This document shows positions 3,887 to 56,694 of a stretch of DNA of 64,000 bases, one piece after another. The position numbers and the translations under genes were made by a program. The stretch covers positions 12,968-76,967 of the forward strand of contig CAQIDI010000002.1 in assembly GCA_948806215.1 (NCBI GenBank). Direction: 5' to 3'. Numbering within the stretch: the stretch's first letter is position 1; the number at the start of each line of letters is the position of its first letter. Under the pieces are notes generated by a model. That model made no database searches and was not told the origin of the DNA. It saw only the letters and a program-made list of their open reading frames with translations. This DNA is from an uncultured Eubacteriales bacterium. GTDB taxonomy: Bacteria > Bacillota > Clostridia > Christensenellales > UBA1242.

Positions 3887-4603
3887 TTATTTTATTAAAT
3901 TATATTTTTTAAATATTTTGTTAGCCTTTTCCATTTCGGCGTTAGTTGGTTCTTTGGTTGAATACAACTTATAATCCATTCCTAATTCTTTCCATTTATA
4001 TTCACCCATTTTATGAAACGGCAATAATTCAACGCGCTTAACACATTTAAAGTTGCTTAAAAACTTTGCTAAATTTTCTAGTTCTTCAAAATTTAATGTG
4101 TAGTTTGGAACAATAACGTGTCGTATCCAAACCGGCTTGTTGATTTTTTCGCAATATTCTAGTGTGTTTAAAGTGTTAAAGTTTTCAACACCAGTTAAAG
4201 TTTTACTTAACTGATTATTTAATGCTTTTATATCTAGCAACAACATATCGCTTGCATTAATAACTTTTTTGCTAATTTTTAGTGGAAGCGAACCTGCTGT
4301 GTCAACCGCAACTTTTATGTTTAACTTATGCAATCTTTTTATTAACGAATAAACAAATCTATGTTGCAAAAGTGGTTCTCCACCAGATATTGTAACACCG
4401 CCCGAGCTAATATAGTTTAAATATGGCTTAATGCCATTAACAACTTGTGTTACGCTCATTTTTTTTCCAGCTTTAATTTTCCACGAATCAGGGTTATGAC
4501 AATATAAGCATCTTAAAAAGCAACCTTGCATAAACACAACATATCTAACACCGGGGCCATCAACTGCACCAAAGGTTTCAACTGAGTGAATATATCCTTT
4601 CAT
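3887..4603 (-). CDS. pflA: pyruvate formate-lyase activating enzyme (radical SAM)
   Basis: 238 aa with CFLRCLYCHN (CxxxCxxC) and GGEPLL, located immediately downstream of pflB. Confidence 0.9.
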   Translation of the reverse strand: MKGYIHSVETFGAVDGPGVRYVVFMQGCFLRCLYCHNPDSWKIKAGKKMSVTQVVNGIKPYLNYISSGGVTISGGEPLLQHRFVYSLIKRLHKLNIKVAVDTAGSLPLKISKKVINASDMLLLDIKALNNQLSKTLTGVENFNTLNTLEYCEKINKPVWIRHVIVPNYTLNFEELENLAKFLSNFKCVKRVELLPFHKMGEYKWKELGMDYKLYSTKEPTNAEMEKANKIFKKYNLIK

Positions 4604-4614
4604 ATAACACCAAA

Positions 4615-6825
4615 TTAGAACCTTGTGTGGAAAGTACGATTAATAACATCTTGTTGTTGTTCTTTTGTTAATTTAATAAAGTTAACTGCGTAGCCAGAAA
4701 CTCGAATTGTTAGTTGTGGATATTTTTCTGGATGATCCATAGCATCTAATAAAACATCTCTATTTAAAACATTAACATTTAAGTGATGTCCTTTATCGCC
4801 AAAATACCCATCCATTAACGAAACTAGGTTTTTAACTTTGTCTTCTTCGGTTGTGCCAAGAGCCGATGGAATAATAGAGAATGTGTTACTAATACCATCT
4901 TCGGCACTATCGTAAGGAAGTTTAGAAACCGATTTTAAAGATGCAACACAACCCATTTTATCACGGCCGTGCATTGGGTTTGCACCCGGGGCAAATGGTT
5001 CGCCAAGTTTTCTACCATCAGGAGTAGAACCTGTGTGCTTACCATAAACAACATTACTGGTTATTGTTAAAACCGATAAGGTTTGACGGCTATTTCTGTA
5101 AGTTGGCTGTTTGCGTAGTTTTTTAATAAACGAATTAACAATCCAAATAGCAATTTTATCGGCACGGCTATCGTTATTACCATATTTAGGATAATCACCT
5201 TCAATTTCAAAATCGATAGCAACACCATTTTCATCTCTAATTGGTTTTACTTTTGCATATTTAATTGCCGATAAACTATCGGCAACAACGCTTAAGCCTG
5301 CAATTCCGCCAGCCATAGTTCTTACAATTTCGTTATCGTGCAAAGCCATTTCAATGCTTTCATAGCAATATTTATCGTGCATATAGTGAATAGCATTTAA
5401 TGTGTTAACATAAAGTTTTGCAAGCCAATCAAGAGTTATATCAAAATTTTTAATAACTTTTTTATATTCTAAATATTCATCAGGAATTGGGTCGCACACA
5501 TCGTATAAATCTTCTTTAGTTATTTCATCAACTCCACCATTAATTGCATAAAGCAAAGCTTTTGCTAAGTTACAACGAGCACCAAAGAATTGCATTTGTT
5601 TTCCAATACGCATTGCCGAAACGCAACAAGCAATACCATAATCGTCGCCAAATTTAGGACGCATTATATCATCGTTTTCGTATTGAATAGAACTTGTGTT
5701 AATAGAAGTTTTTGCAACATATTTTTTAAAGTTTTCTGGTAGATTCTTACTCCATAAAATTGTTAAGTTAGGTTCTGGAGCAGGGCCTAAATTGGTTAAT
5801 GTATGCAAAAATCTAAAGCTCATTTTAGTAACCATATGTCTGCCATCGTTACACATTCCACCAATAGATTCGGTTACCCAAGTTGGGTCGCCAGAAAATA
5901 ATCTGTCGTATTCGCCGGTTCTTAAAAATCTTACAATTCTAAGTTTCATAATAAAATGGTCAACAAATTCTTGAATTTGGCTTTCAGAATATTTTCCAGA
6001 TTTTAAATCTTGTTCGGCATAAATATCTAAGAATGTGCTAATTCTACCAATACTCATAGCCGCACCATTTTGATCTTTAACAGCAGAAAGATATGCAAAA
6101 TATAACCATTGAATAGCTTCTTTAACATCGGTTGCTGGTTTAGAAATATCAAAACCATAATTACTAGCCATTTGTTTTAATGCTTTTAATGCTTTAATTT
6201 GTTCTGCAATTTCTTCACGGTTTCTAATAACTTCTTCGGTGAAAGTTTTTTGTTCATCTTCTTTTAAACTATTACGCTTTTGTTCAATTAAATAATCAAC
6301 ACCATAAAGTGGAACTCTGCGATAGTCGCCAATAATTCTGCCCCTGCCATATGCATCAGGTAGTCCGGTTATTATGTGAGTGTGGCGTGCGGCACGCATT
6401 TCGGAAGTGTAAACATCAAAAACACCATCGTTATGTGTTTTACGATATTTAAACACGTTAGCCACATCGGCATCCATTTCACGGTTATATTCTTCCATTT
6501 CTTTATAAACCAATCTAATTCCGCCAAATGGCATAATTGCTCTTTTTAAAGGTTCATCGGTTTGCAAGCCAACAATTTTTTCTAATTTTTTATCAATATA
6601 ACCCGGGTTATGAGCAGTTATTGTGGAAATGGTTTTATTATCAATATCGTAAACACCACCACGTTCGCGTTCAACTTTCATTTTTTCTAAAAGTTCATTC
6701 CAAAGCTTAACTGTGTTTTTTGTAGGTTTAGTTAAAAAACTTTCGTCACCGCTATAAGGGGTATAGTTTTTAACAATAAAATCTCTTACATTAATATTTT
6801 TATCTTCGTGGTAAATATACTTCAT
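4615..6825 (-). CDS. pflB: pyruvate formate-lyase (formate C-acetyltransferase)
   Basis: Active-site GIACCVSA and C-terminal glycyl-radical motif RVSGYAVNF. The ATG at 6825 follows GGAGA. The tracked ORF begins 4 codons earlier (6837) without an SD. Confidence 0.95.
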
Positions 6826-6984
6826 TTTAATCTCCATAATTTATTATTTTTATTAGTTTTGCCATATAAACAAAATATAACAGCAAAATATATTATATAT
6901 AATAGTTAATTAAAGGTGAAACAAAAAATAGAACTTTTTAAAAATTTGTTTAAATACACCAACTAGCATTATTTTTGCCGATAT

Positions 6985-7007
6985 AAAAAGCCCTTAAGCG
7001 GGGCTTT
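6985..7007 (-). terminator. intrinsic terminator after nrdG
   Basis: AAGCCCC-gcttaag-GGGCTT on the minus strand, followed by a U-run and abutting the stop codon. Confidence 0.75.
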
Positions 7008-7502
7008 TTAATCGTTATATAAAACAATTTGTTTTTGTTTTAGCGACTCGGCAACATTAATTACTCGCTGATTTTCCGACCCACACCATTTTAATGTTGG
7101 ATTACGGCGTTCATCAACATATTGCCCATCAACTAAAACATCAATATAATTTAAAATTTCTTTATTTTGCAAATCCCTATCAAACAAGAAACCCGACCAA
7201 ACCCAAAGGTTTTTTTGTGGATAAGCTTGTTTAAAAGCTTTGGCAAGTTTTGTGCTACCTTCAATATTTAAAGGGTGCAGTGGCTCGCCGCCTAAAATCG
7301 ATAATCCTTCAATATAATCGTTTTCACACAATTTTAAAATAGTTTCAATAGTTTTATCGTTAAACTCTTGTCCACCATTAAAATTATGTGTTTCGGGATT
7401 AAAACAATTTTTGCAGTTAAAGGAGCAACCTTGCATAAAAATAGAAACTCTAACACCCGGACCATCTGCAATATCCATTTTTCTAATTTTATTATATCTC
7501 AT
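7008..7502 (-). CDS. nrdG: anaerobic ribonucleotide reductase activating protein
   Basis: 164 aa with a radical-SAM CSFNCKNCFN motif, located downstream of nrdD. Confidence 0.9.
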   Translation of the reverse strand: MRYNKIRKMDIADGPGVRVSIFMQGCSFNCKNCFNPETHNFNGGQEFNDKTIETILKLCENDYIEGLSILGGEPLHPLNIEGSTKLAKAFKQAYPQKNLWVWSGFLFDRDLQNKEILNYIDVLVDGQYVDERRNPTLKWCGSENQRVINVAESLKQKQIVLYND

Positions 7503-7522
7503 TACTCCCCCTCCCAGTTTAG

Positions 7523-9679
7523 TTATACATCTTTGTTATCGATGTGTAAAACTCTATCTCTTATTTCTTGAGTTCTGCCTTTATTCCAAAAGTTTGTTCC
7601 AATGTAACCACAAGTTCTACGAGCAACATTAAGTGTATCGTGATCACGATTGCCACAATTTGGGCAATACCAATCTAAATTATCATCAATTAACACTTCA
7701 CCTGTGTAACCACATTTTTGGCAGTAATCGCTTTTTGTATTTAGTTCGGCATACATAATATTATCGTAAATAAACTTAATAACTTGTAAAACAACTTCTA
7801 AATTGTTTTGTAGGTTTGGTGTTTCAACATAAGATATAGCACCACCTGGGCTTAGTTTTTGGAAATCGCTTTCTAATTTTAATTTAGAGAACGCATCAAT
7901 TTCTTCAAACACTGGAACGTGATAAGAGTTGGTAACATAATTCTTATCGTTAATTCCTTTAATTTCGCCAAATCTTTTCTTTAAGCATTTGGCAAATTTA
8001 TAGGTAACCGATTCGATTGGAGTGCCATAAACACTATAATCAATGTCTTCAACTTCTTTCCAAGCACTGCAAGCATCGTTTAGTTTTTGCATAACTTCTA
8101 TTGCAAACTCTTTTCCTTTTCCGCCATCGGTGTGGCTATTGCCAGTCATATATTTAACACACTCATATAGTCCGGCATATCCAAGAGAAATTGTTGAATA
8201 TCCACCGTGAAGTAATGGGTGAATGCTTTCTCCTTTTTCAAGCCTTGCAAGTGCTCCGTGTTGCCACAAAATTGGTGCAATATCGCTTGTTGCTTTAGCC
8301 AATCGTTCGTGACGAAGTTTTAATGCTTTGTGGCAAAGTTCTAATCGTTCGTCGTAAATTTTCCAGAATTTATCTTTATCGCCACCAGAAGATAATGCAA
8401 TATCAACTAGGTTAAGAGTAACAACGCCTTGGTTAAAACGTCCATAGTATTTTCCTTTGTTGGTTGTTGGGTCAACATAAGGAGTTAAGAACGAACGGCA
8501 TCCCATACAAGGATAGCAGTTGCCTTCACCGTTTTTGTTTATTTTTAGTTCTAACATTTTCTTTTCAGAAATATAGTCTGGAACCATACGTTTAGCTGTG
8601 CACTCTGCTGCTAATTTTGTTAAATAATAATACTTACTATCTTCGTGGATATTATCTTCTTCTAAAACATACAAAAGTTTTGGGAACGCAGGAGTAATAT
8701 AAACTCCTTTTTCGTTTTTCATACCTTCTATTCGTTGTTTTAAAATTTCTTCGATAATTAAAGATAATTCGTATTTATATTCTTCGGTTTCACCAAGATA
8801 TAAGCAAACACTAAGGAATGGTGCTTGACCATTGGTGGTTGTCATAGAGTTAACTTGATATTGAAAAGTTTGAACTCCATCTTTAATTTCTTTTAAAACA
8901 TCTTCTTTAGCAAATTTTTCACATTGTTCCGAAGTTAACTTTCTATCTTTATACTTTTTTAAATAACGATTATAACTATCTCTAACAAATGGTGCTAAGT
9001 GCGACATTGTTACGGTTGCTCCACCATATTGGCTAGAAGTTACAGCGGTTATAATTTGAGTTGCGATTGTCATAGCTGTTAAAAACTTATGTGGTTTTTC
9101 AATCATAACGCCATTAATGTTTGTTCCATTTTGCAACATATCTTCAAGGTTAATTAAATCACAGTTATGAAGCGCGTTTTGTGCAAAATAATCGGCATCG
9201 TGGAAATGCAAAATACCTTCATCGTGAGCTTTAACAATATCTTCTGGTAATAAAAATCTTCTAGTAATATCAGTACTAGTAATACCAGCTAAATAATCAC
9301 GCTGAGTTGTTACAATTTTTGCATTTTTATTGGAGTTTTCGGTGTTCCAATATTCGCTTTCGCCATCGATTAATTCTTTAATTGTTTGGTCGGTGGTGTT
9401 AGCTTTTCTAATTAATGCACGGTTATAACGATAAACAATATATTTTTTTGCAAGTTCATAATGACCTTGTTCCATAAGTTTTTCTTCAATAATATCTTGA
9501 ATATCTTCAACCAAAATGCGTTTTTTATCTAATTCATTAATATAATTAACAATTTCTTTAATATCTTCTTTACTAGCTCGCAAAGATGGTTTAACTTCTT
9601 TGTTAGCCTTTCCAATTGCAATTTCTATCTTACTTTGGTCAAAATCAACTATGTTACCATCACGTTTAATTACTTGCAT
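7523..9679 (-). CDS. nrdD: anaerobic ribonucleoside-triphosphate reductase
   Basis: ATP-cone N terminus, C-terminal Zn ribbon (CQKCGY...CPNCG) and glycyl-radical motif RRTCGYIG. The start at 9679 follows GGGGGA. The tracked ORF extends to 9703. Confidence 0.95.
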   Translation of the reverse strand: MQVIKRDGNIVDFDQSKIEIAIGKANKEVKPSLRASKEDIKEIVNYINELDKKRILVEDIQDIIEEKLMEQGHYELAKKYIVYRYNRALIRKANTTDQTIKELIDGESEYWNTENSNKNAKIVTTQRDYLAGITSTDITRRFLLPEDIVKAHDEGILHFHDADYFAQNALHNCDLINLEDMLQNGTNINGVMIEKPHKFLTAMTIATQIITAVTSSQYGGATVTMSHLAPFVRDSYNRYLKKYKDRKLTSEQCEKFAKEDVLKEIKDGVQTFQYQVNSMTTTNGQAPFLSVCLYLGETEEYKYELSLIIEEILKQRIEGMKNEKGVYITPAFPKLLYVLEEDNIHEDSKYYYLTKLAAECTAKRMVPDYISEKKMLELKINKNGEGNCYPCMGCRSFLTPYVDPTTNKGKYYGRFNQGVVTLNLVDIALSSGGDKDKFWKIYDERLELCHKALKLRHERLAKATSDIAPILWQHGALARLEKGESIHPLLHGGYSTISLGYAGLYECVKYMTGNSHTDGGKGKEFAIEVMQKLNDACSAWKEVEDIDYSVYGTPIESVTYKFAKCLKKRFGEIKGINDKNYVTNSYHVPVFEEIDAFSKLKLESDFQKLSPGGAISYVETPNLQNNLEVVLQVIKFIYDNIMYAELNTKSDYCQKCGYTGEVLIDDNLDWYCPNCGNRDHDTLNVARRTCGYIGTNFWNKGRTQEIRDRVLHIDNKDV

Positions 9680-9713
9680 TTTTTTATCCCCCATAAATTC
9701 CATTATTGGTTGA

Positions 9714-9743
9714 ATTATATAAAAGATATTGTGGTTTTGTCAA
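9714..9743 (-). promoter_or_regulatory. sigma-70-type promoter of nrdDG
   Basis: Minus strand has TTGACA (9743-9738), an 18-nt spacer, then TATAAT (9719-9714). Confidence 0.6.
9719..9734 (-). promoter_or_regulatory. NrdR box 2 (degenerate 3' half) inside the promoter spacer
   Basis: Minus strand CCACAATATCTTTTAT compared with the known NrdR consensus acaCwAtATaTwGtgt. Confidence 0.5.
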
Positions 9744-9750
9744 TTTTAGA

Positions 9751-9766
9751 ACACAACATATTGTGA
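9751..9766 (-). promoter_or_regulatory. NrdR box 1
   Basis: Minus strand TCACAATATGTTGTGT is a near-perfect match. Its centre is 32 bp from box 2, the typical tandem spacing. Confidence 0.65.
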
Positions 9767-10038
9767 TTTTGGCTAAATTTTGGTTAGATTAAATAAAGTT
9801 TTAAAAAGTCAATTTAATTTTTAAAATTTTTAAAATTTTTAATTATTAATTGCAAATAATAATTATACAAACCTAGTGGCTTAATATGATAACTTATAAA
9901 TAATTTTTTGAATATTTATGCCAAGCCAAAAAAAATTGAATAAAATTGATTTTTTTAAAAAAATTTTTAACATTAAATACCTAACTGGAATAAATAATTA
10001 ACAATTAAAAAAATCCAAAACAAATTTTTAAAAAAGTC

Positions 10039-10067
10039 TTTTAATTTTAAATTATCTGTGCTACAAT
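10039..10067 (+). promoter_or_regulatory. extended -10 promoter of the aspS leader
   Basis: TGcTACAAT at 10059-10067 with a weak -35 TTTTAA at 10039-10044 (17-nt spacer). Confidence 0.45.
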
Positions 10068-10120
10068 ATTTTTAGTATCCACTTTAAAGTGGCTACAAAT
10101 TAAAAGGAAACACTTAAGTT

Positions 10121-10180
10121 ATGAAATTTATTTTTGTTGATAATAACAATAATAATAATAATCTAAACATAACACATTAG
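10121..10180 (+). CDS. putative leader peptide MKFIFVDNNNNNNNLNITH (Asp plus seven consecutive Asn codons)
   Basis: ATG is preceded by AGGA (10105-10108). Codons 7-14 are GAT AAT AAC AAT AAT AAT AAT AAT. Followed by the terminator at 10216-10257. Not in the ORF track because it is short. Confidence 0.55.
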   Translation: MKFIFVDNNNNNNNLNITH

Positions 10181-10215
10181 AATGGGTTTTCTTTTTATTT
10201 GCTTTGTTAAAAAAC

Positions 10216-10257
10216 ATAACACTTGAAAGGTTAAACTCCGTTCAAGTGTTATTTTTT
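10216..10257 (+). terminator. intrinsic terminator (attenuator) between the leader ORF and aspS
   Basis: 12-bp perfect stem ATAACACTTGAA / TTCAAGTGTTAT (10216-10227 with 10241-10252), then TTTTT. It lies upstream of the aspS SD (AAGAGG 10275-10280). Confidence 0.75.
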
Positions 10258-10290
10258 AATTTAAAATAAAAATCAAGAGGTTATAAAAAA

Positions 10291-12027
10291 ATGAGTACTT
10301 ACAGAACACACACATTAGATAAAATAGAGGAATCGGTAATTGGATCGCGTGTTACTCTTTCGGGCTGGGTAGCAAGCATTCGTGACCACGGCGGAATTTT
10401 GTTTTTAGACCTTCGTGACCATTATGGAATGGTGCAAGTGGTTTTAAAAGATGAAACAATGCTAGAAGGCGTTTGTCGTGAAACAGTTATTATGGTGGAA
10501 GGCGAAGTTATTAAACGCGCCGAAGCCGACTACAACGAAAAACTAAAATCTGGCAAAGTTGAATTAAAAGCCGAAAAAGTAACAATTCTTGGTAAGAGCA
10601 AAAACATTTTGCCTTTTGAAATTGCCGATAGCAAATCGGTTAACGAAGATACCAGATTAAAATATCGTTACCTAGACCTTAGAAACCCATTAATGCAACA
10701 AACATTAAAACTTCGTAGCGATTTAACTTACGACCTTAGAACTTGGATGCGTGAACTAGATTTTACCGAAGTTCAAACACCCCTACTTTCCTCCTCTAGC
10801 CCAGAAGGTGCACGCGACTTTTTAGTTCCTAGCCGACTACACAAAGGTTGCTTTTATGCTTTACCACAAGCACCACAACAATTTAAGCAACTGCTTATGG
10901 TTGCCGGAATGGATAAATATTTTCAAATTGCGCCTTGCTTTAGAGATGAAGACGCCCGAGCCGACCGTTCTCCTGGAGAATTTTATCAATTAGATATGGA
11001 AATGAGTTTTGCTACGCAAGAAGATGTTTTTGAAGTTATGGAAAACATATTATATAAAGCTTTTAGCAAATATGGTAAATTTCCAATTAGCAAACCACCT
11101 TTTGCACGCATTCCTTATAAAGAAAGTATGTTAAAATATGGAACTGATAAGCCAGACCTTAGAAACCCAATTATTATTAAAGACTTAACTAAGGTTTTCG
11201 AAAAAACCGAATTTGGTGCTTTTAGCGGAAAAACCGTTCACGGTTTTGCAATTAGTTGTGCTGGAAAATCTCGTAAGTTCTACGATGGATTACAAGATTA
11301 TATCTTATCACAAGGTGCTAAAGGTTTAGCTTGGGTTGCTTATCAAGCAGATGGAACTTTAAAAGGTCCTATTATTAAATTTATATCCGAACAAGAGCAA
11401 GCCGATTTAATTAAGGAAACCGAAGCTAAAATTGGTGATGACATTTTCCTAATTGCAGACGAAGAAAAAATGTGCAACAAACTTTGTGGTTTGTTTAGAA
11501 CTGAAATTGCTAAACAACTTGATATTATTAAAAAAGATAGCTACGAATTTTGCTGGATTATTGATTTTCCAATGTATGAGCTAAACGAAGAAACTGGAAA
11601 AATAGATTTTTGCCACAACCCATTTAGTATGCCTCAAGGCGGACTTAGTGCCCTTACAGAGAAACAACCATTAGATATTCTTGCTTATCAATATGATGTT
11701 GTTGTTAACGGAATTGAACTTTCAAGCGGTGCTGTTAGAAACCACGACCTAGATATTATGGTTAAAGCTTTTGAAATTGCTGGTTACGATGAAGAAACCA
11801 TCAAACAAAAATTTAGTGCTTTATATGAAGCATTTAAGTATGGTGCTCCTCCTCACGCAGGCATTGCACCAGGGCTTGATAGAATGTTAATGCTATTATT
11901 AGATGTTCCATCAATTAGAGAAGTTGTTGCTTTCCCACTAAACTCTAAAGCAGAAGACCCTATGATGAAGGCTCCAAGTGCTGTAACTGAACAACAACTA
12001 CGCGAAGTACACATTAAAATTAGATAA
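10291..12027 (+). CDS. aspS: aspartyl-tRNA synthetase, bacterial type
   Basis: 578 aa with an N-terminal OB fold, QAPQQFKQ, motif 2 FRDEDARADR, a large insertion domain typical of bacterial AspRS, and motif 3 GLDRMLML. Confidence 0.95.
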   Translation: MSTYRTHTLDKIEESVIGSRVTLSGWVASIRDHGGILFLDLRDHYGMVQVVLKDETMLEGVCRETVIMVEGEVIKRAEADYNEKLKSGKVELKAEKVTILGKSKNILPFEIADSKSVNEDTRLKYRYLDLRNPLMQQTLKLRSDLTYDLRTWMRELDFTEVQTPLLSSSSPEGARDFLVPSRLHKGCFYALPQAPQQFKQLLMVAGMDKYFQIAPCFRDEDARADRSPGEFYQLDMEMSFATQEDVFEVMENILYKAFSKYGKFPISKPPFARIPYKESMLKYGTDKPDLRNPIIIKDLTKVFEKTEFGAFSGKTVHGFAISCAGKSRKFYDGLQDYILSQGAKGLAWVAYQADGTLKGPIIKFISEQEQADLIKETEAKIGDDIFLIADEEKMCNKLCGLFRTEIAKQLDIIKKDSYEFCWIIDFPMYELNEETGKIDFCHNPFSMPQGGLSALTEKQPLDILAYQYDVVVNGIELSSGAVRNHDLDIMVKAFEIAGYDEETIKQKFSALYEAFKYGAPPHAGIAPGLDRMLMLLLDVPSIREVVAFPLNSKAEDPMMKAPSAVTEQQLREVHIKIR

Positions 12028-26181: not shown

Positions 26182-27567
26182 TTAATATTCACAATTTTTT
26201 GGTGTTCTAGGAAATAATAAAACATCTCTAATGTTACTAATTCCGGTTACATACATTAAAAATCTTTCAAATCCAAGCCCATAACCACTATGTTTAACCG
26301 AGCCGTATTTTCTAAGATTAACATACCACCAATAGTCTTTTTCTTTTAAACCGCATTCGGCAAGTTTAGTTTTTAAAACATCTAGCCTTTCTTCTCTTTC
26401 GCTTCCGCCAACCATTTCGCCAATGCCTGGAACTAAAAGGTCGCAAGCTCTAACTGTTTTTCCGTCATCGTTTAAACGCATATAGAACGCCTTTATTTGT
26501 TTAGGATAATCAGTTACAAACACTGGGCAGTTAAACACTTTTTCACACAAGAATTTTTCGTGTTCCGATTGCATATCGCAACCCCAGAAAGCTTTAAACT
26601 CAAATTTATCGTTGTTCTCTTCTAATATTTTAATAGCATCGGTATAAGTTAATCGTTTAAAATCGCTATTAACAACTTTATTTAATCTGTTTAATAAATC
26701 GTTATCAACAAATTGGTTAAAGAAGTTTAACTCATCGGCGCAATTAACCAATAAATCGTTAATTAAATATTTTACCATTTTTTCTATTAAATCCATAACA
26801 TCGTTTAACTCGCAAAATGCAACTTCGGGTTCTATCATCCAAAATTCGCTTGCGTGCCTTGTGGTGTTACTGTTTTCACTTCTAAAGGTTGGTCCAAAAG
26901 TGTAAATTTTAGAAAATGCTAAAGCTAAAGCTTCGCCTTCTAACTGTCCGGTTGGAGTAAGAAAAACTGGTTTTCCAAAAAAGTCGTTTTCTGGTGTTGC
27001 ATTTTCTAATGATTTTTTATCGTAAACTTTGTGAGTAGTTACTCTAAACACATCGGAACCACCTTCGCAATCTGCCCCAGTAATAATTGGAGTGTGAACA
27101 TAAACAAAACCATTTTCGTTAAAAAATTTGTGAATTGCATATGCCGCTTTACTTCTAACGCGGAACACCGAATTAAATAAATTTGTGCGTGGTCTTAAAT
27201 AAGCAATTTCACGCAAAAATTCAACACTATGACGCTTTTTTTGTAGTGGATATTCTGCATCGGTTTCGGATAGAACTTCCACTAAAGAAGCTTGAAGTTC
27301 AAACGGTTGTTTGTTGTTTGGTGTTAAAACAATTTTACCTTTAATTAAAACCGAACTTCCTGTGTTTAGTTTTGACACAACATCGTAATTAATTAAGTTG
27401 GCATTAACCACAACTTGAAGCGACTTAAAACAAGTTCCATCGGTTAAATCAATAAAAGCAAATGTTTTTAAATCTCTGGAACTTTTAACCCATCCACCAA
27501 CAGTTACTGTTCCGCTTATATAATCGTTAACATTATCGTATAATTTTTTAATATCTAACTTTTCCAT
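26182..27567 (-). CDS. asnS: asparaginyl-tRNA synthetase
   Basis: 461 aa, class IIb, with FRSENSNTTRHASEFWMIEPE and C-terminal GYGLGFERFLMY. It lies 15 nt downstream of the archaeal-type aspS. Confidence 0.9.
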   Translation of the reverse strand: MEKLDIKKLYDNVNDYISGTVTVGGWVKSSRDLKTFAFIDLTDGTCFKSLQVVVNANLINYDVVSKLNTGSSVLIKGKIVLTPNNKQPFELQASLVEVLSETDAEYPLQKKRHSVEFLREIAYLRPRTNLFNSVFRVRSKAAYAIHKFFNENGFVYVHTPIITGADCEGGSDVFRVTTHKVYDKKSLENATPENDFFGKPVFLTPTGQLEGEALALAFSKIYTFGPTFRSENSNTTRHASEFWMIEPEVAFCELNDVMDLIEKMVKYLINDLLVNCADELNFFNQFVDNDLLNRLNKVVNSDFKRLTYTDAIKILEENNDKFEFKAFWGCDMQSEHEKFLCEKVFNCPVFVTDYPKQIKAFYMRLNDDGKTVRACDLLVPGIGEMVGGSEREERLDVLKTKLAECGLKEKDYWWYVNLRKYGSVKHSGYGLGFERFLMYVTGISNIRDVLLFPRTPKNCEY

Positions 27568-27582
27568 TCTTACTCCTTAAAA

Positions 27583-28869
27583 CTATGGATTAATTCTATT
27601 TGGTCCACGGAAAATAAATTCTGCTTCTTTAATGCTTTGAATATTTAACATTAACATAATAATTCTATCTAGTCCCAAGCCAAAACCACCGTGTGGAGGG
27701 CAACCATATTTAAAGAACTCTAAATAAAATTTAACATCTTCGCCCAAACCTTTTTCTTCGGCTTGTTGCTTTAAAATTTCATATCTGTGTTCACGCTGAG
27801 CACCAGTTGTTATTTCAACCCCTCTCCAAATTAAATCGTAACCTTGAGGCACTCCGTTTTTTCGCATATGATAGAATGCGCGTTTATCCTTTGGATAATC
27901 GGTTATAAACATAAATTCGTGGTTAAACTTATCCTTAGCTAGTTTATAAACTAATTTTTCGGCTTCGGTTGATAAATCTAATTTATCTTCGTCGGTTGGC
28001 TTATAGCCATATTTTACAATTTCAGAATAAACATCGGCTAATTTCATTCTTGGAAAAGGTTTTGTAGGAATAATAACTTGTGTTCCAAAAACTTGTTCAA
28101 TAATTTCGCCATACTCTTGTTTAACTTTTGTTAACGCGTAAATTAACAAATCTTCTTCCAAACTAATAACATCTTCAAACGATTCGATATAACTAAATTC
28201 AATATCAAAACCGGAAAATTCGGTTGCGTGCCTATTGGTGTAACTTTGTTCTGCTCTAAACACAGGACCACTTTCAAAAATTCGTTCAAAACCTGCAGCC
28301 ATTGCCATTTGTTTATAAAATTGTGGGCTTTGAGCAAGATATGCTTTTTTATCAAAATATTTAACTTCAAAAACATCCGAACCGCTTTCGCTAGCTGTTC
28401 CAATTAGTTTTGGTGTGTGGATTTCGATAAATTTATTATTTAACAAAAATTCTCTTAAGGCATTTGTAAAACAACTTTGAATTTTAAAAATAAGAATATT
28501 TCTTTCACTTCTTAAATCAATCCAACGATAGTCTAGGCGGTTATCAATGTTAGCATTATCCATAATTGGTAATGCTTCGGCGTGAGAAGTTACTTCCACT
28601 TTTGTTGGAATAAACTCTACTCCCCCCATTTTAACATATTCACTAATAACACTTTTACCAGTAACGCTTACAACACTATTTGCAATTGTACCTTTTAATG
28701 CTTCAACAATTTCTGGCATTTTTTCTTTTTCGATGGTTACTTGAATTTTTCCGCTAATATCTCTAACAACCAAAAAAATCATATATTTAGAATCTCTAAA
28801 TTTTTCAACCCACCCCATTATTTTACTTTCTTTTTCTGGAACTAATTCGTTAATATAAGTTCTTTGCAT
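27583..28869 (-). CDS. aspS: aspartyl-tRNA synthetase, short archaeal/eukaryal type
   Basis: 428 aa with no bacterial insertion domain. Motifs are AQSPQFYKQ, FRAEQSYTNRHATEF, GAQREH and GFGLGLDRIIML. Confidence 0.85.
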   Translation of the reverse strand: MQRTYINELVPEKESKIMGWVEKFRDSKYMIFLVVRDISGKIQVTIEKEKMPEIVEALKGTIANSVVSVTGKSVISEYVKMGGVEFIPTKVEVTSHAEALPIMDNANIDNRLDYRWIDLRSERNILIFKIQSCFTNALREFLLNNKFIEIHTPKLIGTASESGSDVFEVKYFDKKAYLAQSPQFYKQMAMAAGFERIFESGPVFRAEQSYTNRHATEFSGFDIEFSYIESFEDVISLEEDLLIYALTKVKQEYGEIIEQVFGTQVIIPTKPFPRMKLADVYSEIVKYGYKPTDEDKLDLSTEAEKLVYKLAKDKFNHEFMFITDYPKDKRAFYHMRKNGVPQGYDLIWRGVEITTGAQREHRYEILKQQAEEKGLGEDVKFYLEFFKYGCPPHGGFGLGLDRIIMLMLNIQSIKEAEFIFRGPNRINP

Positions 28870-28893
28870 AATTTATCTCCTTTAATTAATATT

Positions 28894-28921
28894 AAAAAAA
28901 CCCTTAAAAAAATTTAAGGGT
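28894..28921 (-). terminator. intrinsic terminator (attenuator) between the leader ORF and the aspS2-asnS operon
   Basis: Minus strand ACCCTTAAA-tttt-TTTAAGGGT followed by TTTTTT. It is located 13 nt before the SD (AAAGGAG) of aspS2. Confidence 0.7.
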
Positions 28922-28983
28922 AAATTTATTTAATTACTTAAATTGCTTTGGAACTAAAAAAGCCTACCCAATTATATGTGTAA

Positions 28984-29028
28984 TTAAAAGTTATTATCGC
29001 AATCATCAACTTTAATAATCTTTTTCAT
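28984..29028 (-). CDS. putative leader peptide MKKIIKVDDCDNNF (three Asp and two Asn codons in the last seven)
   Basis: ATG is 7 nt after AGGA, downstream of the promoter at 29050-29079 and upstream of the terminator at 28894-28921. Not in the ORF track because it is short. Confidence 0.5.
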   Translation of the reverse strand: MKKIIKVDDCDNNF

Positions 29029-29049
29029 ATTTTGTTCCTAACACTTGTA

Positions 29050-29079
29050 ATTCTAGCACTTTAATTATTTAGCAGTCAA
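29050..29079 (-). promoter_or_regulatory. promoter of the aspS2-asnS leader
   Basis: Minus strand TTGACT (29079-29074), an 18-nt spacer, then TAGAAT (29055-29050). Confidence 0.55.
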
Positions 29080-34951: not shown

Positions 34952-36056
34952 TTAACTTTTCTCCCACTTTAAATATTCAACAACAAATTCTTCTAATTCG
35001 CCATTCATAACGCCCATAACATCGCTTGATTTAAAATTAGTGCGATGGTCGCTAACCATTGTGTAAGGGCAAAAAACATAGCTTCTAATTTGACTGCCCC
35101 ATTCAATTTTTTTAGAATCGCCTTTTAATTTTAAAGCAGCCTTTTTGTTTTCTTCTTCCTTAAGTGCAACCAGTTTACTTTTTAAAACTTTAAAAGCTGT
35201 TTCACGATTTTTAATTTGACTGCGTTCGTTTTGGCAAGTTACCACAATCCCTGTTGGAATGTGTGTTAATCTTATTGCGCTATCGGTTTTGTTAACGTGT
35301 TGCCCACCAGCTCCGGAACTTCTGTAAGTATCAACTCTAACTTCATCGGCATTAATAACCACCGATGTATCATCTTCTACTTCTGGCATAACTTCAACAC
35401 TTGCAAAACTTGTGTGGCGGCGTTTATTAGCATCAAACGGACTAATTCTAACCAACCTATGCACACCAATTTCGCTTTTTAAATAACCATAGGCGTTAAA
35501 CCCGTTAACCATAAAAGTAACACTTTTCAAACCTGCCCCATCGCCATCTAAACTATCAACAACTTCAATTTGGTAGCCCTTTAGTTTTGCATACATATTA
35601 TACATTCTAAAAAGCATTTGAACCCAATCGCAACTTTCTGTTCCACCAGCGCCACTATGAATTTTTACAATAGCATTATTTTTATCGTATTTATCGCTAA
35701 GCAAAGTTTGAACATAAAGCCCATTTATTTGCTTTGTTAATCTGGCTAGTTCCGAGTTTACAAAAGCAATAGCATTACTATCGCTTTCCTGCACATTTTG
35801 CATTCCGAATTCTAAAAAACTTAAGTCTTCTTTAAGTTTTTCGTATTCTTCAATTTGATATTTTAAATTTTTTAATTCAATATTATAGCTTGTGCTGAGT
35901 TTAATATTTGAATAAACAGATGCATTTAATAGTTCTTTTTCTAAAAACTCAATTCTACTTTTTTTAGAATTTAAGTCAAAGACACTGACAGCAAACATTT
36001 AAGCTGTCAGTAAGTTTTTTAAATTGTTCTTGCTCGTTTTCAAAATTAAATAACAT
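34952..36056 (-). CDS. prfB: peptide chain release factor 2, requiring a programmed +1 frameshift
   Basis: Frame 0 is ATG 36056 ... CTT TGA (stop at 35978-35976). The +1 frame continues FDLNSKK... with an SPF motif (RISPFD) and GGQ (SGAGGQHVN). The ORF track shows only the downstream frame. Confidence 0.93.
35975..35981 (-). other. prfB +1 programmed frameshift site CTT TGA C
   Basis: The canonical autoregulatory heptamer at codons 26-27. No SD-like stimulator is seen upstream (TGC TGT CAG TGT). Confidence 0.9.
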
Positions 36057-56577: not shown

Positions 56578-56639
56578 ATAATTTAAATTGGTTCTTTAAT
56601 TACAATTTTTTATATATGCACCCATAGCTCAATTGGATA
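56578..56639 (+). repeat. direct repeat copy B (belongs to the intact tRNA-Arg gene)
   Basis: See copy A. The offset between the two copies is about 160 bp. Confidence 0.85.
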
Positions 56640-56694
56640 GAGCGTTGGTCTACGGAACCAAAGGTTAGGGGTTCGACTCCCTTTGGGTGCACCA
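56618..56694 (+). tRNA. tRNA-Arg (anticodon ACG), CCA encoded
   Basis: Hand-folded cloverleaf. Acceptor GCACCCA/TGGGTGC, D arm GCTC/GAGC, anticodon arm TTGGT-CTACGGA-ACCAA, T arm AGGGG-TTCGACT-CCCTT, discriminator A plus CCA. Confidence 0.9.

Follow-up and report, generated by a model that had tools for sequence, protein, structure and literature searches.

In Escherichia coli, the attenuators of trpL, hisL, thrL, leuL, and pheM-pheST combine a leader carrying regulatory codons with a terminator and a mutually exclusive antiterminator. Elsewhere, charging of a tRNA is read directly by a T-box: in Clostridium acetobutylicum, a T-box with an Asn specifier controls an aspartyl-tRNA synthetase of the non-discriminating type (ND-AspRS) and GatCAB (Saad et al. 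2012 J Biol Chem, as cited in PMC4206432). The two kinds of sensor can stand in for each other, since in bacilli His leader peptides replace T-boxes before the hisS paralogues hisZ and hisS* (Naville and Gautheret 2010, PMC2965389), and the authors of that survey stress exchanges of sensing systems (PMC2965389). Here, we analyse a stretch of 64,000 nt (hereafter the window; ~31% G+C) from an uncultured Eubacteriales bacterium (GTDB lineage Bacillota; Clostridia; Christensenellales; UBA1242), taken from positions 12,968-76,967 of the forward strand of contig CAQIDI010000002.1 in assembly GCA_948806215.1. In this window, a short upstream open reading frame (uORF) with a run of Asn codons and an intrinsic terminator lie before aspS, the gene for a bacterial-type aspartate--tRNA ligase. 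We consider it likely, from sequence comparison and RNA folding, that this leader is a ribosome-mediated transcription attenuator, by which the availability of Asn-tRNA(Asn) determines how strongly aspS is expressed. All results are computational, and the region 9700-10500 was read directly.

Leader, terminator, and their conservation upstream of aspS

Direct reading of the region reproduced exactly the coordinates given in a preliminary description of this DNA for the -10 element, Shine-Dalgarno (SD) sequence, uORF, Asn codons, hairpin, aspS start, and an 11-nt direct repeat (Table 1). The identification of the downstream gene as a bacterial-type aspS, made in the same description, is borne out by matches to NCBIfam NF001750 (768.9 bits) and TIGR00459 (625.4 bits). 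Codons 7-14 of the leader (10139-10162) read GAT AAT AAC AAT AAT AAT AAT AAT, and the direct repeat, AAACATAACAC, has copies at 10165-10175 and 10212-10222. The upstream neighbour, nrdD (7523-9703), lies on the minus strand at a distance of 587 nt. Because nrdD is divergent, the hairpin at 10216-10252 cannot terminate an upstream gene, and the spacer is a divergent promoter region. In the window, a simple scanner detected nothing resembling a promoter from the terminator to the aspS ATG. The small hairpin with which the transcript is predicted to begin may protect its 5′ end; two relatives (L081 and L002) have another small hairpin predicted in the corresponding position.

The terminator hairpin has a folding energy of -16.5 kcal/mol (z = -6.0), a value not reached by any of 200 shuffled sequences, and taken alone it is valued at -16.0 to -16.5 kcal/mol. 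On an alignment of eight sequences (A1), the 12 stem pairs are paired in 95.8% of cells, compared with 22-44% for slid controls, and five of the 12 pairs show compensatory double changes, including A-U to G-C at alignment columns 133:159 and U-A to C-G at 129:163. RNAalifold returns exactly this helix on A1 and nothing else. The 13-nt loop contains a conserved AAAC(U)CC, and all members have a U-run after the stem. The perfect 12-bp hairpin and U5 tract of the preliminary description are thus upheld by sequence, fold energy, and covariation; a simple terminator scanner missed the hairpin because its loop limit was 8 nt.

The nearest AspRS genes were collected from GTDB contigs, with one genome per species and among the matches listed, so that the taxonomic spread reported here is a lower bound. 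The nearest among these encodes a protein 65% identical to that of the window and comes from uncultured gut 'Clostridia' metagenome-assembled genomes, while a separate protein search yielded closer relatives at 85% and 81% identity. The AspRS of the window itself occurs on more than 130 contigs, the longest of them 1.03 Mb. The comparative search suggested earlier, for Asn-rich uORFs and terminators before aspS in related genomes, recovered both together in nine other distinct sequences, each with the same layout of promoter, SD, Asn-run uORF, hairpin with U-run, and aspS. With the window, these relatives fall into three AspRS clades that are 62-68% identical to each other, and they occupy five genomic contexts. 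The upstream neighbours vary among loci (nrdD, trkA, iPGM, or recJ) and the uORF stays before aspS, which indicates that the uORF travels with aspS.

The uORFs found upstream of aspS in these relatives read MLYFVVNNNNNNNLNITH (L081/L082), MKFMLVNNNNNNNNITH (L083, in which the nrdD-aspS synteny is retained), (M)VKVILVNNNNNNNFNVTQ (L002 and L098), MTKVILVNDNNNNNFFVTQ (L088), MF(I/T)VLANNNNNNNIIITQ (L094 and L099/L100), MIRVCLINNNNNNNDNNTLYLMRPFSIVC, beginning MIRVCLINNNNNNNDNNTLY (L001), and MDKQNNQNNNNLSRDIF (L101/L102, before an aspS-gatC-gatA operon). Those of L081, L083, L002, L098, L088, L094, and L099 are homologous to the uORF of the window, while those of L001 and L101 are analogous. All of these relatives have a TTGACA-like -35 element and/or an extended -10 element, an SD, and a hairpin with a U-run between uORF and aspS, and TGnTAnnnT occurs at a similar distance 5′ of the uORF in those whose flanks were read. 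A pattern scan of metagenomes returned one genuine new member and seven chance matches. A covariance model of the element (R1) detected no additional copies in 742 kb, and its scores for L001 (28.8 bits, E = 0.09), L101 (20.5 bits), and a second leader in the window described below (19.1 bits, E = 4.4) were not significant, so the three are only possible homologues of the core family. A scan of 14 other aspS loci without a T-box motif found no Asn/Asp-rich uORFs.

Two of the relatives show additional features. The L101/L102 leader (1363-1500) contains two Gln codons among its Asn codons; speculatively, it might sense both amides, given that GatCAB also makes Gln-tRNA(Gln). In L001, the interval between the leader terminator and aspS (2826-2998) holds an additional small ORF, MKITQKLKTNAQLGENFIK, preceded by an SD, and a possible second hairpin.

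Several properties of the Asn run point to selection at the level of translation. A regular-expression scan of both strands found this to be the only run of at least five AAY triplets in the 64-kb window. Relatives retain 6-8 Asn codons, in which AAT and AAC swap freely and an occasional Asp codon appears. The single indel within the uORF among the aligned sequences (in L083) is 3 nt long and keeps the frame, the stop codon occupies the same alignment column in all eight aligned sequences, and an SD and start codon stand in frame 6-7 codons 5′ of the run in 10 of 10 sequences. Codon interchange, an in-frame indel, and a fixed stop codon together argue for selection on translation and are unlike the behaviour of a slippage microsatellite. 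The leader peptide is otherwise free to vary, apart from its last codons, which overlap an RNA helix.

Table 1 Features of the aspS leader and of the aspS2-asnS operon in the window.
Feature	Position	Strand	Description
Weak -35 element, TTTTAA	~10039-10044	+	sequence reading
Extended -10 element, TGcTACAAT	10059-10067	+	sequence reading
Small 5′-proximal hairpin, CCACUUUAAAGUGG	10079-10092	+	at the 5′ end predicted for the leader transcript
Leader ribosome-binding region, AAAAGGAAAC	10102-10113	+	SD AGGA 10105-10108
Leader ORF, MKFIFVDNNNNNNNLNITH	10121-10180	+	19 codons; ATG 10121, TAG 10178-10180
Regulatory codons	10139-10168	+	GAT, seven AAY (10142-10162), CTA, and AAC (10166-10168)
Predicted antiterminator, 5′ strand	10169-10197	+	AUAACAC, stop codon, GAAUGGGUUU, and pyrimidine-tract CUUUUUA
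Intrinsic terminator	10216-10257	+	12-bp stem 10216-10227/10241-10252, 13-nt loop, U5 10253-10257
Predicted antiterminator, 3′ strand	10224-10252	+	top 4 nt of the terminator 5′ arm, loop, and whole 3′ arm
aspS	10275-12027	+	SD AAGAGG 10275-10280; coding sequence 10291-12027, 578 aa; proposed regulated gene
asnS	26182-27567	-	AsnRS (646.8 bits); downstream of aspS2, one operon
aspS2	27583-28869	-	archaeal-type AspRS (NF003483 'aspartate--tRNA(Asn) ligase', 446 bits)
Second candidate leader-peptide attenuator	28870-29078	-	before aspS2-asnS
Second uORF, MKKIIKVDDCDNNF	29028-28984	-	three Asp, one Cys, and two Asn codons

Alternative fold and ribosome position

By eye, no convincing antiterminator had been found when the locus was first described. 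Folding of 10164-10254 located a candidate: this segment is predicted to adopt a single long hairpin (-23.5 kcal/mol, z = -5.0; none of 200 shuffles matched it) that is not the terminator, and in which the last codons, stop codon, and GGGUUUUCUUUUU (10169-10197) pair with 10224-10252. The outer helix joins AUAACAC of the last sense codons (10169-10175) to GUGUUAU at the base of the terminator 3′ arm (10246-10252) and continues with UU against AA. In the middle, GAAUGGGUUU (10180-10189, starting from the G of the stop codon) pairs with AAAC-UCCGUUC from the loop and the upper 3′ arm (10233-10243), and the inner helix joins CUUUUUA (10191-10197) to UGAAAGG at the top of the 5′ arm and in the loop (10224-10230). 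In two relatives the antiterminator is likewise computed to be more stable than the terminator (-22.1 vs. -12.8 kcal/mol in L081 and -17.6 vs. -13.6 kcal/mol in L083).

This fold would account for several features of the leader. All members of groups I and II have an AAAC(Y)C-like loop that is complementary to an invariant GGGUUU 3′ of the stop codon, and pairing between the two would explain the unusual length of the loop and its conserved content. Similarly, the copy of the repeat at the end of the uORF mimics the 5′ arm of the terminator and competes with it for the 3′ arm, which would explain the 11-nt direct repeat and agrees with the earlier expectation that such redundancy reflects alternative pairings. 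Complementarity was assessed with RNAduplex, pairing the uORF end plus 22 nt with the loop plus 3′ arm and comparing the energy with 1000 dinucleotide shuffles. The observed energy was reached by 4 shuffles for the window, 22 for L081, 31 for L083, 11 for L002, 36 for L088, and 67 for L094. Under the same definition, the complementarity in L001 and L101 was not significant, leaving six of eight sequences above shuffles.

Other structural candidates were tried and rejected. A single consensus antiterminator for all members is unsupported by the alignment, from which RNAalifold gives the terminator only. The 11-nt repeat does not behave as a covarying element, because an A-U to G-C change in the group II terminator is not mirrored in the uORF-end copy. 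A classical 1:2/2:3/3:4 scheme also fails, as groups I and II have no middle segment complementary to the 5′ arm and it is the uORF end that mimics this arm.

The arrangement suggests the following sequence of events. Transcription would start just 3′ of the extended -10 element at 10059-10067, and a ribosome would load at the AGGA and the ATG at 10121 to translate the 19-codon leader. With Asn-tRNA(Asn) plentiful, the ribosome would reach the TAG at 10178-10180 and cover approximately 10163-10193, including the antiterminator 5′ strand; with the antiterminator masked, the 12-bp terminator (10216-10252, U5) would form and transcription would end before aspS. With Asn-tRNA(Asn) scarce, the ribosome would stall on the seven Asn codons (10142-10162) and leave 10169-10197 free. 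Transcription of the long terminator loop precedes that of the 3′ arm, and the freed segment would pair with this loop first (GAAUGGGUUU with AAAC-UCCGUUC); the loop-nucleated helix would then zip into the 3′ arm (AUAACAC with GUGUUAU). With the 5′ arm excluded, no terminator would form and RNA polymerase would read into aspS. When the ribosome-binding site (RBS) of the leader is empty, it could pair with the pyrimidine tract GGGUUUUCUUUU, removing part of the antiterminator and giving termination by default. Pairing of the RBS region with this tract (10186-10195) is present in the whole-leader minimum free energy structures of six of six folded sequences. By analogy, we infer that it corresponds to the 1:2 default-to-termination helix of trp, and that a following ribosome should block it. 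The logic of the switch would be that a shortage of Asn-tRNA(Asn) calls for more of a tRNA(Asn)-charging AspRS feeding GatCAB.

The effect of ribosome position was modelled by masking a 29-nt footprint and computing the mean pair probability of the terminator stem. In the window, a ribosome at the stop codon gives a value of 0.95, and a ribosome on any Asp or Asn codon gives 0.00-0.01 when the RNA behind it is unavailable. L081 switches like the window, and L083 and L094 switch partially; the alternative helix thus prevails at equilibrium only within the subgroup to which the window belongs. The aspS SD lies outside every predicted structure.

The tRNA probably sensed and a second candidate leader

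No T-box (RF00230, with Stem I, specifier loop, and AGGGUGGNACCGCG), known leader family, or riboswitch was found in 9700-10400 at E-values up to 10, nor across the whole window at the gathering score. A cmscan of 9700-10400 with all 4227 Rfam families gave only chance-level microRNA-like matches on the hairpin, and the curated leader models (Phe_leader, His_leader, Trp_leader, Thr_leader, and Leu_leader) gave no covariance-model match. At the same place in the wider group, T-boxes are frequent: a T-box motif lies just 5′ of aspS in ~33 low-GC relatives (AspRS 54-61% identical) among at least 80 GTDB aspS loci. In 31 aligned T-box leaders before aspS, the specifier is invariantly AAC followed by a purine and the preceding bases are variable; as the specifier is AAC and not GAC, aspS of the wider group appears tuned to tRNA-Asn. 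At the Rfam gathering score no T-box was detected in 18 relatives, and the T-box of the relative L053 reached 74.9 bits in a permissive scan, under the gathering score owing to AT-richness. Since the T-boxes of AT-rich relatives score below the cut-off, a motif scan and permissive scans were needed to find them. These data agree with the proposal in the preliminary description that a leader peptide takes the place of a T-box here. That description had also envisaged sensing of tRNA-Asn together with tRNA-Asp; the AAC specifiers speak for the former, and a GAC specifier was not seen at aspS.

The gene context of aspS leads in the same direction. An orthologous aspS adjoins gatCAB in L084, L085, L097, and L101/L102, and in L101 the Asn-rich leader stands before the entire aspS-gatCA operon. 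Given this adjacency and the AAC T-boxes of relatives, the signal sensed is most likely the charging of tRNA-Asn, and the regulated bacterial-type AspRS is probably non-discriminating, making Asp-tRNA(Asn) for GatCAB. Here, as in organisms with both routes to Asn-tRNA (PMC4206432), the indirect route may serve tRNA-dependent Asn synthesis.

A second candidate leader is found elsewhere in the window, before the aspS2-asnS operon (Table 1). Its promoter reads TTGACT-17-TGcTAGAAT and its SD AGGAAC, and its uORF is followed by AAUUGGGUAGGCUUUUUU, a 9-bp hairpin (ACCCUUAAA/UUUAAGGGU) with U7, and then the aspS2 SD. In this leader, pairing of GGGUAGG with UUUACCC in the 5′ arm is possible until the 3′ arm appears, and the alternative fold is valued at -9.5 kcal/mol. 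An Rfam search of this region detected no T-box, known leader, or riboswitch, and an alignment of the two window leaders revealed no convincing paralogy. At locus L103, where AspRS2 is 65% identical, a T-box (108.9 bits) with a GAC (Asp) specifier precedes aspS2; closer AspRS2 homologues, at 71-93% identity, are also known from the protein search. The second leader is a sequence-based candidate attenuator of aspS2-asnS, and the phenomenon may be genome-wide in this lineage.

Comparison of the two operons with their relatives gives parallel pictures: relatives have a T-box with an AAC specifier before aspS (aspS1) and this genome has an Asn-run leader, while before aspS2 (here with asnS) relatives have a T-box with a GAC specifier and this genome has an Asp/Asn leader. 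A broader reading, for which we see somewhat less than an even case, is that the lineage has swapped T-boxes for leader attenuators that keep the specificity at its Asp/Asn operons (AAC to an Asn run, and GAC to Asp codons plus Asn codons for asnS). It would entail a division of labour in which the bacterial AspRS, induced when Asn-tRNA is short, is dedicated to tRNA-Asn and GatCAB, and the archaeal-type AspRS acts as the housekeeping enzyme, beside AsnRS, the reverse of the situation in Thermus/Deinococcus.

The window has other notable features. The nrdD promoter on the minus strand is a perfect TTGACA-18-TATAAT at 9743-9714, and it is flanked, within 9714-9775, by two palindromic ATATTGTG/CACAACATATTGTG elements, with similar ones in L083 at 9235-9280; these palindromes resemble NrdR boxes. 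Glycyl-radical enzymes and their activases (pflA, pflB, nrdG, and nrdD) occupy 3887-9703, consistent with a strict anaerobe, and the same cluster adjoins aspS in L083. Upstream of prfB (RF2; ORF 34952-35998), on the minus strand, stands a short ORF in the same frame that opens at ATG 36055 and ends in CTT TGA C (35976-36055), which is the classical RF2 programmed +1 frameshift site. Directly after a tRNA-Arg (ACG) gene at 56618-56694 comes a phage-type integrase (PF00589; 56790-58001, minus strand), with a run of small ORFs from ~58.1 kb, and this region may be a mobile element integrated at the tRNA gene.

Weighing the readings and comparison with known systems

The earlier proposal that stalling at the Asn codons controls read-through thus gains computational support from conservation, from the predicted antiterminator, and from the T-box equivalence. 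Its functional steps, namely uORF translation, stalling, the transcription start site, and Asn-responsive read-through, are predictions drawn from these data.

Several results weigh against attenuation by stalling at the Asn codons. When the 5′ leader of the window is free to pair, the terminator persists despite a ribosome on the Asp/Asn codons (probability 0.64-0.72), owing to pairing of the leader RBS region with the pyrimidine tract GUUUUCUUUU. The switch is seen only with the RNA behind the stalled ribosome excluded, and so depends on an assumption, such as a second ribosome in that place. The constrained folding recommended at the outset accordingly gave a divided answer: whole-leader folding kept the terminator in nearly every state, and the switch emerged once the RNA behind the ribosome was excluded. 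In L002, L088, L001, and L101, the terminator probability exceeds ~0.9 in every ribosome state. The alternative helices of distant members are weak (-8.8 and -7.6 kcal/mol with the 5′ arm held single-stranded), and their isolated alternative duplexes (-11.7 and -10.6 kcal/mol) compare poorly with the terminator (-20.9 and -17.0 kcal/mol). Because the terminator is favoured at equilibrium in L002, L088, L001, and L101, antitermination there would have to be kinetic, with a helix nucleated on the earlier-transcribed loop zipping into the emerging 3′ arm before the 5′ arm can do so. On A1, the window-derived antiterminator has 74% paired cells against 37-49% for slid controls, and its outer helix in group II does not track the compensatory changes of the terminator; the pairing registers therefore appear group-specific, and no single consensus antiterminator can be claimed. 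The spacing between leader SD and ATG is long (12-13 nt) in the window, L002/L098, and L088. Regarding the physiological rationale, the window also encodes AsnRS and an archaeal-type AspRS, which means that the indirect route is not the sole route to Asn-tRNA, and the check for gatCAB, asnA, and asnB that had been proposed for the genome covered the 64-kb window, where none of them was found.

Among the other explanations, it appears quite unlikely that the uORF is a gene in its own right, for a hydrophobic Asn-rich peptide or a small RNA, with aspS expressed by leaky read-through or from its own promoter and the Asn run serving the peptide instead of regulation. A small ORF with its own promoter, SD, and terminator is what such a gene would look like, and the spacers between terminator and aspS are long in some relatives (~70 nt in L081, ~130 nt in L088, and in L001 ~180 nt, including another small ORF), where an internal promoter is possible. 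However, the uORF is always directly 5′ of aspS while other neighbours change, the corresponding spacer of the window has no promoter-like site, and the peptide varies freely outside the Asn run and last codons. Complementarity of the uORF end to the terminator, and an Asn T-box at the same position in relatives, are also at odds with a free-standing gene.

The persistence of the terminator in all predicted states of L002, L088, L001, and L101 could mean that stalling acts apart from termination, on mRNA or leader stability or on aspS translation, with the hairpin serving as a constitutive partial terminator or a stabiliser. Such a post-transcriptional role is conceivable for these distant members, but as an account of the whole system it is very unlikely, as the aspS SD takes part in no predicted structure, conserved complementarity links the uORF end specifically to the terminator loop and 3′ arm, and a U-run is present in every member.

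Protein-mediated attenuation is common in low-GC Gram-positive bacteria, and regularly spaced triplets upstream of a terminator could bind an RNA-binding protein (TRAP-like, or AspRS/AsnRS in autoregulation) or a tRNA that decides the fold. We hold such a role for the AAU/AAC array to be highly improbable: a conserved SD, an in-frame start, an in-frame indel, and a stop codon fixed relative to the antiterminator would not be required by it, the terminator is the sole conserved structure, and there is no T-box or other Rfam match in the region searched. Finally, a chance (AAT)n microsatellite beside a fortuitous hairpin, which the preliminary description had raised as a caveat and for which the ~31% G+C of the DNA might be cited, can be set aside with near certainty, since the run is unique in the window, mixes AAT and AAC at near-constant length, and is conserved with its frame and a covarying terminator across three AspRS clades.

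If ribosome-mediated attenuation by Asn codons holds, Asn would join the amino acids sensed via ribosome stalling, and the locus would represent a natural conversion between two sensors of tRNA charging. Within one clade, a leader peptide directly taking over from a T-box of the same specificity would bear on the exchange of RNA sensors (PMC2965389). The Asn codons would also provide a sequence-only indicator that a bacterial-type AspRS acts on tRNA-Asn, where discrimination is hard to predict from the protein sequence, and the element, at ~190 nt, would be a compact and portable Asn-responsive switch for engineering.

A full-text literature search returned no Asn-codon leader peptide, no leader peptide for aspS, and no case in which codons for one amino acid control a synthetase named for another, in line with the earlier statement that no Asn-codon attenuator had been described for an AspRS gene. 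The general phenomenon, a leader peptide replacing a T-box at synthetase genes, is already published. With trpL, hisL, thrL, and leuL, the aspS leader shares a short ORF, a codon cluster, a terminator, and a predicted antiterminator whose 5′ strand a ribosome at the stop codon would mask, and with pheM-pheST it shares an aminoacyl-tRNA synthetase gene as its target. Unlike these classical attenuators, it places Asn codons before the gene for an Asp-tRNA ligase and has no Rfam match, the element common to both folds is mainly the terminator loop and 3′ arm and not just the 5′ arm, and it is carried by an uncultured, Clostridia-like lineage of low-GC gut bacteria. The Asn T-box of C. acetobutylicum resembles it in acting on the AspRS of tRNA-dependent Asn formation in response to tRNA-Asn charging, but a T-box binds uncharged tRNA directly, whereas sensing here would pass through a translating ribosome, with no Stem I. 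Closest in kind are the His leaders of hisZ and hisS* in bacilli, likewise recognised by comparative genomics as leader peptides before a synthetase-family gene where Firmicutes usually have a T-box. Compared with these, the present case concerns Asn and not His, another gene and another lineage, and two operons (aspS and aspS2-asnS) that have seemingly been converted. What is new here is thus the amino acid, the governing of an Asp-tRNA ligase by Asn codons, a predicted antiterminator that is nucleated at the terminator loop and employs a mimic of the 5′ arm, and the uncultured lineage in which these are combined.

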